Below, piece after piece: positions 13,438 through 30,679 of a DNA stretch of 31,117 nucleotides. Under the pieces are notes generated by a model, which worked only from the letters and a program-made list of their open reading frames with translations, did not search any database and was not told the origin of the DNA. The position numbers and the translations under genes were made by a program. Location of the stretch: contig CAXSIE010000001.1 of assembly GCA_964237295.1 (NCBI GenBank), forward strand, positions 2,137 through 33,253. Direction: 5' to 3'. Positions within the stretch are counted from its first letter, which is position 1; every line of letters begins with the position of its first letter. Origin of the DNA: an uncultured Flavihumibacter sp. (GTDB lineage: Bacteria > Bacteroidota > Bacteroidia > Chitinophagales > Chitinophagaceae).

Positions 13438-13614
13438 CTACCTTCTTTCAAGCAGTTCACTTCTCCTGTTTTCAGGCACGTTTTCATAATCATATGCACA
13501 ATGAAGACAGCCCCTGCCACAGCAAAATCCTCTGTTCAAATGATACACTTCGGTAAGAACGATAAATCCCTGTTCGTTATAATAAAAATCGGTTCCTTCA
13601 ATTAATTTTTTCAT
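13438..13614 (-). CDS. Small Cys-rich protein (DUF5522-like)
   Basis: DFYYNEQGFIVLTEVYHLNRGFCCGRGCLHCAY; start at MKKLIE, overlapping the trmB stop. Confidence 0.8.
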   Translation of the reverse strand: MKKLIEGTDFYYNEQGFIVLTEVYHLNRGFCCGRGCLHCAYDYENVPENRRSELLERR

Positions 13615-14305
13615 AATCATTAATTCTTTCATGCAATTGATCATCAAATTCCGGCATAGCAGCTGGTGGTAATGAAAATCTTAAGTAATGTATCTTATTG
13701 CTTTGTGCAATATCAAGGCCTTCATAGTGGGTTTTAATGCTTAATTCCCGGTTAATAGAATTACTTGCATAAACATCTTCATTATCTTCATGCAAAATCA
13801 GTCCATACATTTCTATCACAGTTTTAGTGAAATCATATAAGTCCGGTGAATCGGTCTTTAAATGTATATTACCATCAGGTATTAAGATTTGTTGATAGAG
13901 CCGGAGGAATTTAGGATGAGTTAACCTTTTTTTTGCTTTAGACTTCCTTAAATGAGGATCAGGAAAGGTGATCCATATCTCTGATACCTCTGAAGAATTA
14001 AAATAAGTATGTATCTTATCAATATGGGTTCGTAGAAATAAAGTATTATTGATTTTAGCCTCAAGGCATTTTTTAGCTCCTATATAAAGCCGGTTTCCTT
14101 TAAGATCAACCCCGATAAAATTTCTTTCCGGATGAATTAATGCCAACTGTACCGCATACTCACCTTTACCACAGGCCAGTTCTAATGTAAGGGGATGATC
14201 GTTGTTAAAAAAACTTTTCCAATTACCAGCCATTTGTACCGGATACTGCAATACATTAGAAAATGACTTAATAGCTTCGAAACGCAGTAACTTTTTTTGA
14301 CCCAT
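13598..14305 (-). CDS. trmB: tRNA (guanine-N7)-methyltransferase
   Basis: LELACGKGEY, GVDLKGNR, ITFPDPH, KAKKRLTHP, LKTDS and KTHYE. Confidence 0.96.
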   Translation of the reverse strand: MGQKKLLRFEAIKSFSNVLQYPVQMAGNWKSFFNNDHPLTLELACGKGEYAVQLALIHPERNFIGVDLKGNRLYIGAKKCLEAKINNTLFLRTHIDKIHTYFNSSEVSEIWITFPDPHLRKSKAKKRLTHPKFLRLYQQILIPDGNIHLKTDSPDLYDFTKTVIEMYGLILHEDNEDVYASNSINRELSIKTHYEGLDIAQSNKIHYLRFSLPPAAMPEFDDQLHERINDYEKIN

Positions 14306-25949: not shown

Positions 25950-26787
25950 TTATGCTGCTTGTAAGTAATTGATGGCATCAGGAATAAAGACATGCGATTT
26001 ATGTTCAAGGTACTGATAAGCAACCAGAGCTGATAAGATGTTAGCCAACCCATGCAAGGGGTTACGATGACGCGAATGCTCCACATTGCATACAGTGGCC
26101 AGGATATCGTTAACCGATTCTATAACAGCGCGCTGTTTAAGCAGCCTGATATCACCCGGCAGCGCAGCTAAGGGTTTCATGTTCTTCTTTGGCCGCACCA
26201 ACAGGTGAAGCCCTTGTTCATAGAAGGTAACAAACAAGGTGGTTAAGTACCCTTTATCTGCACTATATTTTCCTTGCAGACCTTTCAGTAAATAAGAGAG
26301 CACCTCTTTGTTGTTGTCAGCTGTGTGACCGGCTGTAACCAGAAAGTTTACTATCTCTCCCAGATGATTGATGACCAGGTGCAGCTTCAGGCCATAAAAC
26401 CATCCGTTGCTGCTCTTGCCTTTGGAGGCTTGTTCACTAACTACTTTGTGGCTCTTTTCACGCTTGATGTGACAGACTTCCAGCTTTTTGGAATCGATAA
26501 AGTAGTGGTTTCATCAAATGAAATTTCGTGAAGATTACCTGATAATATATCTCGGCCAGCAGCTTAAAAGGAAGGAGCACCAATGTAAGGCGGGAAAGTG
26601 AATAATACGAGTGTTTGCGGGTAAGAATTGCGTAAAGTACCTGGTAAATTCTACTTACATTTCCAGCCACTTCCAAAATCCATGCTTCATGACGCCCAGA
26701 AAAAAGAACAAGCCGATCAAAAAGAGTACTATTAACCAGTACAGGGTGACGCGGGTGGGTGGATGACGGCGGTAGGACATCTATCAA
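25950..26787 (-). mobile_element. IS982-family transposase remnant (frameshifted pseudogene)
   Basis: Continuous frame from about 26505 to 25950: YFIDSKKLEVCHIKR...GKSSNGWFYGLKLHL...AD...ADKGY...KQRAVIESVND...HSRHR. In-frame stops lie just upstream (about 26510-26516) and the N-terminal part is degraded; TIRs not identified, so boundaries are approximate. Confidence 0.9.
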
Positions 26788-27783: not shown

Positions 27784-27908
27784 GTACCCAGACGGCCCAT
27801 CTTTTATAGCCGAACTATCCAGCATCATCGCCCCGGCAAATGAAACGGCTGAAGCGTTCAGGAGGAGAGAGTAAAAACTAGGAAGTGGGCAACCAACGGG
27901 CAACTATA

Positions 27909-27950
27909 TAAAAAATGGTGTATTGATTGTCATTCAATCAAATACACCAT
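27909..27950 (-). terminator. Intrinsic terminator of the tRNA-like RNA pair
   Basis: Minus strand ATGGTGTATTTGATTG-aatga-CAATCAATACACCAT (15 bp, one bulge) followed by a T-run; starts 7 nt past the 3' end of the distal RNA. Confidence 0.82.
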
Positions 27951-27957
27951 TCAAATG

Positions 27958-28127
27958 CTGTAGAGGGAGGACTCGAACCTCCACGGAGTAGTTAGCCTTA
28001 GCACAAAGTTCAGTGGTCGACCCTGGTCGCTCCGGTATTGCTACAAGAACGGCTCTATGCTACGTTTATCCCAATTCCCCACCCCCGAGACAAGAGGGCA
28101 TGTCTGCCAAAATTTCATCACTCCACA
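27958..28127 (-). ncRNA. tRNA-like RNA copy A (GUC anticodon, 99-nt variable-arm domain)
   Basis: Acceptor TGTGGAG/CTCTACA + G73; D arm ATG..AAATTTTGGCAGA..CAT; anticodon arm CCCTC-TTGTCTC-GGGGG; T arm GGAGG-TTCGAGT-CCTCC. Confidence 0.85.
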
Positions 28128-28137
28128 TTATTACAAG

Positions 28138-28307
28138 CTGTGGGAGAAGGACTCGAACCTCCACGGGGCAGTTAGCTATTGCACAAAGTTCAGTGGTCGA
28201 CCCTGGTCGCTTTTATATTGCTATAAAAGCGGCTCTATGCAACGTTTATTCAGAACCCCCACCCCCGAGACAAGAGGGCATGTCTGCCAAAATTTCATCA
28301 TCCCACA
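28138..28307 (-). ncRNA. tRNA-like RNA copy B (GUC anticodon, 99-nt variable-arm domain)
   Basis: Acceptor TGTGGGA/TCCCACA + G73; D and anticodon arms identical to copy A; T arm GGAGG-TTCGAGT-CCTTC; 180-nt period with a 10-nt spacer. Confidence 0.87.
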
Positions 28308-28364
28308 TTTAAATCAATGAACTGATTAGTATCAAAAGAATGCCTTCAACAGATAATCATGATG

Positions 28365-28397
28365 CAATATTAATACAACTACCCCGTTAGTTACAAA
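28365..28397 (-). promoter_or_regulatory. Putative Bacteroidota housekeeping promoter for the tRNA-like pair
   Basis: Minus-strand TTTG (28397-28394)-N21-TAATATTG (28372-28365) versus consensus TTTG-N19-21-TAnnTTTG (one mismatch). Confidence 0.5.
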
Positions 28398-28480: not shown

Positions 28481-28951
28481 ATGGCGGTTAAATTTAATCT
28501 TGACAAATTGGATATTCAAATTATTCATGAAATGGTAGAAGATGCGGAAATATCTTATGCCGAACTCGGAAAAAAATTGTTTGTTTCCGGCGGTACCATT
28601 CATGTAAGAATTAAAAAACTTCAGGAATATAAAATAGTCCGGGGTACAAGGTTGGCAGTAGATTTGAAGCAGCTGGGATATGATGTTATCGCTTTCATAG
28701 GAATTTACCTTGAAAAAAGCTCATTATACGATGCTGTAGCAAAGGAATTGAGAAAGATACCCGATATTGTACGACTTAACTACACTACCGGCAATTATAG
28801 CATGTTCGCAGAAATTATTTGTAAAGATATCAACAAGCTTAGGTTTGTTTTACATGATGAACTGCAAAAAATAAAGGGTATCGAACGAACAGAAACCTTT
28901 ATTTCCCTGGAAGAAAGTTTTTCGAGAAACGTTCAGATTACTATGGATTAA
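28481..28951 (+). CDS. Lrp/AsnC family transcriptional regulator
   Basis: LDKLDIQII...ISYAELGKKL.VSGGTIHVRIKKL HTH; RAM domain YTTGNYSMFAEI...IERTETFISL. Confidence 0.95.
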   Translation: MAVKFNLDKLDIQIIHEMVEDAEISYAELGKKLFVSGGTIHVRIKKLQEYKIVRGTRLAVDLKQLGYDVIAFIGIYLEKSSLYDAVAKELRKIPDIVRLNYTTGNYSMFAEIICKDINKLRFVLHDELQKIKGIERTETFISLEESFSRNVQITMD

Positions 28952-29431: not shown

Positions 29432-29458
29432 AGGTATGAGATGTTGGGTATGAGGTTT
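29432..29458 (-). repeat. Inverted, partly degenerate copies of the heptamer
   Basis: AGGTATGAGATGTTGGGTATGAGGTTT; its reverse complement matches 29531-29557 at 23/27 positions. Confidence 0.85.
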
Positions 29459-29533
29459 AGGCAAAGCAACTTACAACAAATATTGAAGATAATGTTATGC
29501 GAAGCAGCGCATGTCACTAATTCTTTGTCAAAA

Positions 29534-29592
29534 CCTCATACCTCATACCTCATACCTCATACCTCATACCTCATACCTCATACCTCATACCT
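29534..29592 (+). repeat. Perfect heptanucleotide tandem repeat (CCTCATA)8
   Basis: Eight exact units at 29534-29589 plus partial CCT, abutting the TAG stop of the ABC permease. Confidence 0.97.
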
Positions 29593-30679
29593 ACTTCACA
29601 TTCAAAGCGTCTCTCAAGCCATTACCCAACAAATTAAAAGCCAGCACCAGCAACATTATTGCAAACCCCGGAGCCAGGGCCAGCATCGGATTATGGGTGA
29701 TAATAAAATTATAATTCTCCTTAATCATCAATCCCCAACTAGGTTGTGGCGGTTGAACACCAACGCCAAGAAAACTAAGTCCGGCTTCAATTACAATGGC
29801 AGAAGCGAAATTGGATGCGGCTACAACCAATACCGGGCCTAATATATTAGGAAGAATGTGCCTGAAAATGATGCGGCTGTCGGAAAATCCTAAAGCCCTT
29901 GCTGCTTCTACATATTCCAGTTCACGAACACCCAAAACCTGGCCACGCACAATGCGCGCTACACTTACCCACATCGTTAATCCTACTGCAATAAATACCT
30001 GCCAGAAACCTTTTCCTAATAATAATGTAATGGCAAACACAAGTAATAAAGTAGGTATGCTCCATATTATGTTTATCAACCACATGATAACATCGTCTAC
30101 CCATCCACGGAAGTAGCCGGCAATGGCTCCTAAAACAATTCCAATGGTTAATGAAATAATAATTGCTATCAGCCCAACACTTAAACTTACCCTGATGCCC
30201 ACTATCAGCCTGCTTAAAATATCTCTGCCATATTTATCCGTTCCCAACCATGATGTTTTGGTAACAAAATAATTATCTGCGGACTTCTCAAATCCGGATT
30301 TGGGAAACCTGATAATTTCGTAAACCCCTTCATCAATATATTTTTCAAAAATCACTGAATCCCTGGTTATATTATAGCCATTCACAGGAACAAAAATGTA
30401 AGCTTCCTCCTGTCCATAAAGCAAACGATGAATAAAACCGGCTGTTTTTACAGGTCCTTCTTTTTTTTCTTTCATAAACATTTGCCTCGATCCTGGTTTT
30501 AAACCGCCTATTTCTACAATCATCCTGTTTGCGTTGGGGGAAGCATCGGGTGCAATCAGGTAAGCGGAAATAGCAAGTAGCGTAGCCATCAATATAATGA
30601 ACATCCCAAAAACAGCAGCTTTATTTTTCTTTAATTTAAGCCAGGTAGCTTTTTGTATGGAATTTTCGGGAGGTATCAT
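29591..30679 (-). CDS. Peptide/nickel ABC transporter permease (DppC/OppC family)
   Basis: WLGTDKYGRDILSRL, EYVEAARALGFSDSRIIFRHILPN (EAA loop), IEAGLSFLGVGVQPPQPSWG. Confidence 0.95.
   Translation of the reverse strand: MIPPENSIQKATWLKLKKNKAAVFGMFIILMATLLAISAYLIAPDASPNANRMIVEIGGLKPGSRQMFMKEKKEGPVKTAGFIHRLLYGQEEAYIFVPVNGYNITRDSVIFEKYIDEGVYEIIRFPKSGFEKSADNYFVTKTSWLGTDKYGRDILSRLIVGIRVSLSVGLIAIIISLTIGIVLGAIAGYFRGWVDDVIMWLINIIWSIPTLLLVFAITLLLGKGFWQVFIAVGLTMWVSVARIVRGQVLGVRELEYVEAARALGFSDSRIIFRHILPNILGPVLVVAASNFASAIVIEAGLSFLGVGVQPPQPSWGLMIKENYNFIITHNPMLALAPGFAIMLLVLAFNLLGNGLRDALNVK

Follow-up and report, generated by a model that had tools for sequence, protein, structure and literature searches.

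What is the function of two tandem RNAs that fold like tRNAs and carry a giant variable arm? This question is raised by positions 27,958 to 28,307 of a 31,117-nt stretch of DNA from an uncultured Flavihumibacter sp. (Bacteroidota, Chitinophagaceae; GenBank assembly GCA_964237295.1, contig CAXSIE010000001.1, positions 2,137 to 33,253 of the forward strand), hereafter referred to as the window. The giant-armed RNA encoded there is an uncatalogued family in Bacteroidota and their phages, with neither an entry in Rfam nor an account in the literature that we searched. Its genes usually lie divergently from a gene coding for an AsnC-type regulator and its presence in genomes follows that of GatB, associations that, together with its nucleotide signature, are consistent with an amino acid carrier operating outside translation.

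Tandem Repeats Finder (TRF) delimited a repeat at positions 27968-28309 with a period of 180 nt, 1.9 copies and 87% matches, and direct reading of the sequence confirmed what a first examination based on the letters alone (the original prediction) had claimed, namely a 180-nt tandem duplication in which each unit folds on the minus strand into a cloverleaf. The two units and their parts are as follows.

28307 to 28138, minus strand: unit A, tRNA-like RNA of 170 nt (U1 at 28307, G73 at 28138, C74 at 28137)
28301-28307, minus strand: unit A, 5′ strand of the acceptor stem
28262-28278, minus strand: unit A, anticodon-like stem-loop
28163-28261, minus strand: unit A, variable region (99 nt)
28146-28162, minus strand: unit A, T arm
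28139-28145, minus strand: unit A, 3′ strand of the acceptor stem
28128-28137, minus strand: 10-nt spacer separating unit A (G73) from unit B (U1), CUUGUAAUAA
28127 to 27958, minus strand: unit B, tRNA-like RNA of 170 nt (U1 at 28127, G73 at 27958, C74 at 27957)
28082-28098, minus strand: unit B, anticodon-like stem-loop, with the loop UUGUCUC at 28087-28093
27983-28081, minus strand: unit B, variable region (99 nt)
27966-27982, minus strand: unit B, T arm
27959-27965, minus strand: unit B, 3′ strand of the acceptor stem

Both units have a 7-bp acceptor stem (UGUGGGA/UCCCACA in unit A, UGUGGAG/CUCUACA in unit B) with U3-A70 as pair 3-70, followed by U8, G9 and a 3-bp D stem (A10-U25, U11-A24 and G12-C23) with GG in its loop. 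The anticodon-like arm combines a 5-bp stem, extended by G26.U44, with the 7-nt loop UUGUCUC, while the T arm consists of a 5-bp stem and the loop UUCGAGU, which fits the UUCRANY consensus, and the 3′ end reads G73 then C74. The defining traits of a cloverleaf, i.e. a 7-bp acceptor stem, a D arm bearing G18G19 and a T arm, are thus all present, and every helix is either supported or invariant. The variable region is structured and, as first measured, exactly 99 nt long in both units. Units A and B score 178.9 and 179.6 bits, respectively, with the covariance model of the family.

The structural claim rests on covariation because the folding energy of a single unit is unremarkable (z = −0.17 for unit B). 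Units A and B differ at 24 positions, 15 of which fall in paired columns and span 10 pairs; five of these pairs are fully compensated, which bears out the covariation between acceptor stems noted initially, four alternate between G-C and G.U, and a single pair is mismatched in one unit. Since both copies are also found in a genome of the same genus (L006), these compensated differences indicate that the duplication is old and that the two copies have been maintained. In a MAFFT alignment of 54 homologous units, 97.6% of the cells form standard pairs compared to 44-55% when the partners are slid by 1-3 columns, and compensatory changes on both sides occur in 18 of the 45 pairs, values that none of 500 shuffles reached. 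Conservation across homologues has sharp edges, starting exactly at U1 and ending at C74. Two other foldings were discarded. A GGCA/UGCC hairpin obtained by single-sequence folding was ruled out, the G-to-A change at position 26 of several homologues fitting the cloverleaf. A tRNA carrying an intron or an inserted element was ruled out as well, as the supposed insert is itself conserved and covarying (helices 4 to 8), and the Rfam search of the units gave no group I or group II intron signal.

Neither ARAGORN nor Rfam recognizes these genes. ARAGORN detected no tRNA and no tmRNA (transfer-messenger RNA) gene in the whole window, although pseudo, odd or intron-containing calls had been anticipated. 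The search of Rfam 15, carried out as initially suggested, gave nothing at the gathering thresholds and only noise at E ≤ 10, at which even the tRNA model remained silent.

The genome from which the window derives (G000) contains exactly two copies of the RNA, both in the tandem pair. In a blastn search of 201 genomes of the same family, 140 genomes, belonging to 108 of 151 genera, gave matches over the full length of the RNA (68-92% identity); a single copy is most common, and some genomes harbour 2-4 copies in tandem. More than 120 matches were obtained when named genome records were scanned for a motif, and among the matches listed nearly all belong to Chitinophagaceae/Chitinophagales, plus one labelled Saprospiraceae and one Sphingobacteriales. 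The covariance model (R1), with which true members score above 85 bits and ordinary class II tRNAs of 83-87 nt score 40-56 bits, detected members in at least 14 families of the class (28 of the 151 genomes sampled) and, outside the class, in a single genome.

The length of the members varies from about 110 to 213 nt, and that of their variable arm from 40 to 140 nt. All share a body made of UGU..UG.YGAAA, GGCAG.C, a CCCUC/GGGGG stem, the T arm and a 3′ end reading ..ACAGC, as well as an internal loop in the arm in which AUAAA faces CUAAC; the arm also holds a GGUUGACCAC apical loop. Medium and long forms have an extra helix capped by GGGUUGACCAC, and the long forms, including those of the window, have a three-way junction whose third hairpin, often GNRA-capped, varies freely with compensation. 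Short members of 110-120 nt were observed at L054:3220-3337, L053:3205-3322, L029:1761-1877, L205:1511-1630 and L142:41-150 and 357-466. They are devoid of the distal arm and form tandems with long members of the same locus, so arm size differs even between neighbouring paralogues.

A motif scan of IMG/VR revealed the RNA on five phage contigs (112-122 bits), in each case without AsnC. This indicates that the RNA functions in the absence of its regulator and benefits phages, which leaves room for a role related to conflict. No match was found by blastn against the INPHARED phages. The RNA shares its stretch with tRNA genes in L087, L088 and L089, located at most about 600 nt upstream of it in L087 and L089, and in L086 it is flanked by genes for a phage DNA polymerase and an endolysin. 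On L087, a 79-kb IMG/VR contig, the giant-armed RNA is accompanied by one tmRNA gene and four tRNA genes, all within 2.7 kb (positions 278-2963).

In terms of genomic company, the tightest relation of the RNA is with GatB. Among the 201 family genomes, 139 have both, 57 have neither, one has the RNA only and four have GatB only. The sole RNA-only genome is an 89%-complete metagenome-assembled genome (MAG), and three of the four GatB-only genomes are fragmented MAGs; the covariance model was negative in all four. GatB of G000 itself scores 534.6 bits. In the class sample, GatB was found in 28 of 28 RNA-positive genomes compared to 83 of 123 RNA-negative ones, counts to which the unpublished genome G425 contributes one GatB-positive, RNA-negative entry only. 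Furthermore, close relatives lose the RNA and GatB jointly in four lineages:

Lineage g61: RNA and GatB both present in G060, both absent from G194
Lineage g272: both present in G422 and G455, both absent from G383
Lineage g238: both present in G392, both absent from G349
Lineage f5: both present in G420, both absent from G215

The complement of charging enzymes suggests what this relation may mean. GlnRS, AsnRS and GatB were all found in the five RNA-positive genomes examined, so that GatCAB would otherwise be redundant there, with no obligatory canonical job. Conversely, GlnRS is missing from five of five RNA-negative, GatB-positive genomes, and GatCAB therefore has its ordinary role in them. 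Genomes combining AsnRS, GlnRS and GatCAB, including some Bacteroidetes, were noted earlier and the combination was ascribed to asparagine synthesis on tRNA-Asn (PMC4206432), in a study that does not mention the giant-armed RNA. A replacement of asparagine synthetase by the RNA was ruled out as a simple complementarity: asnB shows no inverse relation to the RNA, and the presence of asnA is mixed in both RNA-positive and RNA-negative groups. In one RNA-positive genome (G044), asnA lies 1.6 kb from gatB (C13:46081-47034 and 48621-50045).

The second association is with the adjacent regulator gene.

28481 to 28951, plus strand, divergent from the RNA pair: AsnC-type regulator, 156 aa, whose start codon lies 173 nt upstream of U1 of unit A

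Its product exhibits the Pfam domains HTH_AsnC-type and AsnC_trans_reg. The best NCBIfam match is AsnC PRK11179 with 156 bits, below the 227-bit cut-off, against 52 bits for Lrp; the Lrp-type neighbour that was to be looked for among homologous loci is thus real and resembles AsnC specifically. An orthologue sharing 73-90% identity is encoded divergently upstream of the RNA in 144 of the 158 loci with enough flanking sequence, at a median gap of 152 nt. Genome-wide, 134 of the 201 family genomes have both the RNA and AsnC, six the RNA only, eight AsnC only and 53 neither. In Escherichia coli, asnA sits next to asnC, a place taken here by the RNA.

The RNA pair is bounded by putative transcription signals.

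28365 to 28397, minus strand: candidate promoter of the Bacteroidota type, with a −33 element TTTG at 28394-28397, a 21-nt spacer and the −7 element TAATATTG at 28365-28372
27907 to 27952, minus strand: intrinsic terminator after unit B, with a 17-bp hairpin at 27913-27952 followed by UUUUUUAU (U-run)

A sigma-70 scan gave no match, as expected for Bacteroidota. When the sequences upstream of the RNA in homologous loci are aligned, a TAnnTTTG or TAATATTG box can be recognized by eye; the strict TAnnTTTG pattern is found in the preceding 165 nt, at distances that are scattered, in 100 of 162 loci. The terminator hairpin folds with −18.7 kcal/mol (z = −5.4), and none of 200 shuffles was equally stable. 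Together, the promoter candidate upstream and the terminator downstream suggest that the RNA pair is a self-contained transcription unit. The 10-nt spacer is too short to hold a promoter of its own, implying that the units are co-transcribed and need to be cut apart, presumably by endonucleolytic processing as in tRNA operons. The position of the candidate promoter predicts a leader of approximately 50 nt (28308 to about 28358), which would be removed to yield U1. Many loci (e.g. L138, L012 and L105) have a GTTCTT(A/T) motif that precedes the mature 5′ end by about 7-10 nt, corresponding to positions ~28320-28330 of the window; this conserved leader motif might be a signal for RNase P or one related to AsnC.

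Contigs of this RNA and of its relatives are present in four soil metatranscriptomes. The summed word depth reaches about 6×10^4 within positions 27938-28311 and is zero in the flanks; the edges partly mirror conservation because the reads stem from related organisms. For a run comprising only 98 million letters, so great a depth implies that the RNA is very abundant. This evidence consists of assembled contigs, some with adapter-joined ends at ambiguous positions. The genes encode N73 then C74 rather than CCA, as do all 34 tRNA genes of the genome, which, like the 10-nt spacer, is in line with maturation of the tRNA type.

Could such an RNA decode? U33 and a purine at position 37 are near-universal rules for decoding tRNAs. 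In this family, 147 units have U at position 33 of the loop, 41 have C, two have G and one has A, and position 37 is always a pyrimidine (U or C). The loop UUGUCUC is otherwise nearly invariant, with a single lineage having U34, i.e. UUC instead of GUC. The GUC triplet, together with the failure of ARAGORN to find a tRNA-Asp gene in G000, had suggested that the RNA might be the sole tRNA-Asp of the genome. This was ruled out: a canonical tRNA-Asp(GUC) gene is present in G000, cut at the end of contig C606 (from around 2841 to the contig end), and another was found in each of five complete relatives. As the canonical tRNA-Asp coexists with it, the giant-armed RNA is not the cell's tRNA-Asp and, given positions 33 and 37 of its loop, decoding on the ribosome is unlikely. 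Owing to its truncation, the tRNA-Asp gene would falsely be reported as missing by a naive census of this MAG.

The RNA exhibits marks by which two tRNA-dependent enzymes recognize their substrates. The strong determinants of bacterial aspartate identity are G73, G34, U35, C36 and C38 (PMC9976931); all five are found in both units of the window, in addition to G2-C71, and across the family 180 of 181 units have G73. Bacterial GatCAB relies on U1-A72 as its sole identity element, irrespective of anticodon base 36 (PMC1635274). U1-A72 is invariant in the family (54 of 54 sequences).

Among the roles listed in the original prediction, a non-ribosomal aminoacyl carrier or synthetase ligand fits best with the AsnC linkage, the GatB co-occurrence, the aspartate determinants and U1-A72, and we put at about even the chances that the RNA is a non-decoding carrier which AspRS charges with aspartate and GatCAB amidates to asparagine, under the control of AsnC and off the ribosome. 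In this scheme, the pair would be transcribed from one promoter, probably under an AsnC-type regulator, and tRNA-processing enzymes would cut the transcript into 170-nt units whose CCA end would be completed. AspRS would then load aspartate onto the RNA and GatCAB would turn the RNA-bound aspartate into asparagine, while the RNA would stay out of ribosomal decoding. The RNA would thus be dedicated to tRNA-dependent formation of asparagine, either as its carrier, regulated by amino acids, or as a reporter of its progress. Every step of this scheme, from processing and charging through amidation to what becomes of the product, is one that we infer. With slightly less assurance, we propose that the RNA, abundant and under an amino acid sensor, represents a new class of non-decoding, tRNA-derived cofactors whose sole job is aspartylation followed by amidation by GatCAB, either to make asparagine or to sense nitrogen status.

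Several observations weigh against this proposal. We know of no route by which asparagine could be released or used from such a carrier. The counts linking the RNA to GatB are not phylogenetically independent, and the tRNA-Asn of the genome also has U1-A72, so GatCAB could be kept for tRNA-Asn. An asnB homologue is present in 175 of the 201 family genomes, including most RNA-positive ones, and asnA in some, so the RNA does not simply stand in for asparagine synthetase. In phages, it occurs without AsnC. At the level of nucleotides, A10 replaces G10 and U1-A72 replaces the G1-C72 favoured by bacterial AspRS (PMC9976931). The RNA also has a long D-loop of class II type, with extra nucleotides that follow G19 and precede the 3′ strand of the D stem, and in Neisseria an extra D-loop nucleotide (20A), an antideterminant, reduces transamidation approximately 10-fold (PMC1635274).

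The co-occurrence with GatB and AsnC applies equally to a regulator or sensor, whereby the charging or amidation state of the RNA, or its binding, would report the supply of aspartate, asparagine or glutamine, or whereby the RNA would organize or titrate an AspRS-GatCAB transamidosome serving tRNA-Asn. Such a stoichiometric binder would be well served by the very high abundance of the RNA, the extra D-loop nucleotides speak against its efficient amidation, and the genome's tRNA-Asn, with its U1-A72, would be the substrate on which genomes having AsnRS, GlnRS and GatCAB are thought to make asparagine (PMC4206432). However, a mere binder has no need for G73, U35, C36, C38 and U1-A72 to be invariant simultaneously, AsnC is the only syntenic protein partner among the conserved neighbours, and no regulatory target is known; we regard this explanation as unlikely. 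Carriage by phages without AsnC, on several contigs alongside tRNA or tmRNA genes, and the near invariance of UUGUCUC would suit a look-alike engaged in phage-host conflict, either absorbing or resisting anticodon nucleases directed against tRNAs with GUN anticodons, or being their target. Elements related to defence are usually patchy and fast-evolving, whereas the RNA is found as a single copy or a tandem at a fixed chromosomal site, next to a housekeeping-type regulator, in about 70% of the family. It tracks GatB, a decoy would leave its links to GatCAB and AsnC unexplained, and no nuclease or defence genes are found among the conserved neighbours of the RNA loci, all of which makes a decoy or replacement improbable.

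The complete cloverleaf, with its canonical T-loop, G18G19, U8 and A14, and the presence of the RNA within phage tRNA clusters are what one would expect of a special tRNA active on the ribosome, which would decode GAY codons or take part in a reaction of the rescue type, its giant arm pointing out of the ribosome like helix 2 of tmRNA, whose large domain leaves the tRNA-like part at the position of the variable arm. This possibility is still more improbable: U33 is not conserved, the loop has a pyrimidine at position 37, an ordinary tRNA-Asp exists alongside the RNA, no open reading frame or resume codon was found, the tRNA and tmRNA models are silent, and a decoder has no reason to track GatB where AsnRS and GlnRS exist. 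The least probable of the alternatives, in our view, is a serine-accepting class II relative resembling allo-tRNAs, charged by SerRS via its long arm and G73 and acting as a seryl carrier or missense tRNA. G73, G2-C71, R4-Y69 and a very large variable region do belong to the bacterial serine identity set (PMC9976931), and long-arm allo-tRNAs often have a GUC anticodon (PMC5389517), but the RNA lacks C72 and C11-G24, its stems are of the 7/5 rather than the 8/4 or 9/3 type, its D arm is Leu-like and not Ser-like, and the links to GatB and AsnC would go unexplained.

Among the known systems closest to the RNA is bacterial tRNA-Asn as cofactor of the indirect pathway (AspRS plus GatCAB), as found in Thermus, Deinococcus and Bdellovibrio (PMC1635274, PMC4206432). 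Both have U1-A72, G73 and an anticodon loop readable by AspRS, and both occur in genomes encoding GatCAB, with AsnRS and GlnRS also present in carriers of the RNA. The giant-armed RNA differs from tRNA-Asn in having GUC instead of GUU, a class II body, a 99-nt arm, a long D-loop and a link to AsnC, and its unconserved U33 and pyrimidine 37 mean that its product could not serve translation as Asn-tRNA-Asn does. The scaffold is that of a class II tRNA, as judged from the D arm, which is nearly identical to that of the genome's tRNA-Leu (UGGCGAAAUUGGUAGACGC in tRNA-Leu and UGAUGAAAUUUUGGCAGACAU in the RNA); tRNA-Leu also shares the 7/5 cloverleaf and the extra arm at the variable position. In contrast with class II tRNAs, the arm measures 40-140 nt instead of 10-24 nt, the variable region of class I tRNAs being only 4-5 nt long, G73 replaces the A73 of tRNA-Leu, the loop is non-decoding, and neither ARAGORN nor the Rfam tRNA model recognizes the RNA.

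With tmRNA, the RNA shares the acceptor stem and T arm, a large domain at the position of the variable arm and carriage by phages beside tRNAs; unlike tmRNA, it keeps a D arm and an anticodon-type arm, has no coding part, pseudoknot ring or G3.U70, and measures 170 nt compared to about 360 nt. The location of the giant arm at the position of tmRNA helix 2 bears on how tRNA-like domains gain modules. Allo-tRNAs (PMC5389517) resemble it by a long variable arm, an anticodon that does not match the likely charging identity and the frequent GUC, yet they are 8/4 or 9/3 molecules with a normal class II arm and were proposed to be decoders, whereas the RNA is 7/5. YrlA, a bacterial Y RNA (PMC4201824), is likewise a non-coding tRNA mimic with T-arm and D-arm elements, but its 5′ and 3′ ends form the Ro60-binding stem and its gene lies beside rsr, while the ends of the giant-armed RNA form the acceptor stem. 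This difference in topology, together with the absence of Ro60, RtcB and WYL genes among the conserved neighbours of the RNA loci, leaves the link with these genes that had been envisaged initially without support, whereas the concurrent view of a functional tRNA mimic with conserved structure that is not an ordinary decoder holds.

Should the carrier reading be correct, this would be the first RNA to keep the tRNA identity for both a synthetase and an amidotransferase while standing outside translation, as a dedicated cofactor of amino acid metabolism, and it would answer, here in Bacteroidota, why many bacteria retain GatCAB despite having AsnRS and GlnRS. It would also lengthen the still short list of conserved bacterial RNAs without a known function by one that is widespread and very abundant in soil Bacteroidota and their phages, and that current annotation pipelines overlook entirely.

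Besides AsnC, the conserved neighbours of the RNA loci are TrmB, an OppC-like permease and a GT2 glycosyltransferase. The OppC-like permease gene (29591-30679, minus strand) is a conserved neighbour in 52 loci; a 133-aa open reading frame without family match (29441-29842, plus strand) overlaps it on the opposite strand and is probably spurious. TrmB, the m7G46 methyltransferase, modifies tRNAs in their variable loop. Its gene lies directly downstream of the RNA and on the same strand in 42 loci, among them L160 (2803-3513), with a median gap of 330 nt that shrinks to 68 nt in L160. In the window, the TrmB gene (13607-14305, minus strand) is on the same strand as the RNA but 13.6 kb downstream, separated from it by a type IX secretion system (T9SS) SprB-repeat gene and transposase remnants, as if insertions had split an old adjacency. 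A fragment of a DDE transposase (DDE_Tnp_1_3, C-terminal part only, 117 aa; 25950-26303, minus strand) lies downstream of the RNA pair and is probably the decaying pseudogene mentioned in the original prediction.

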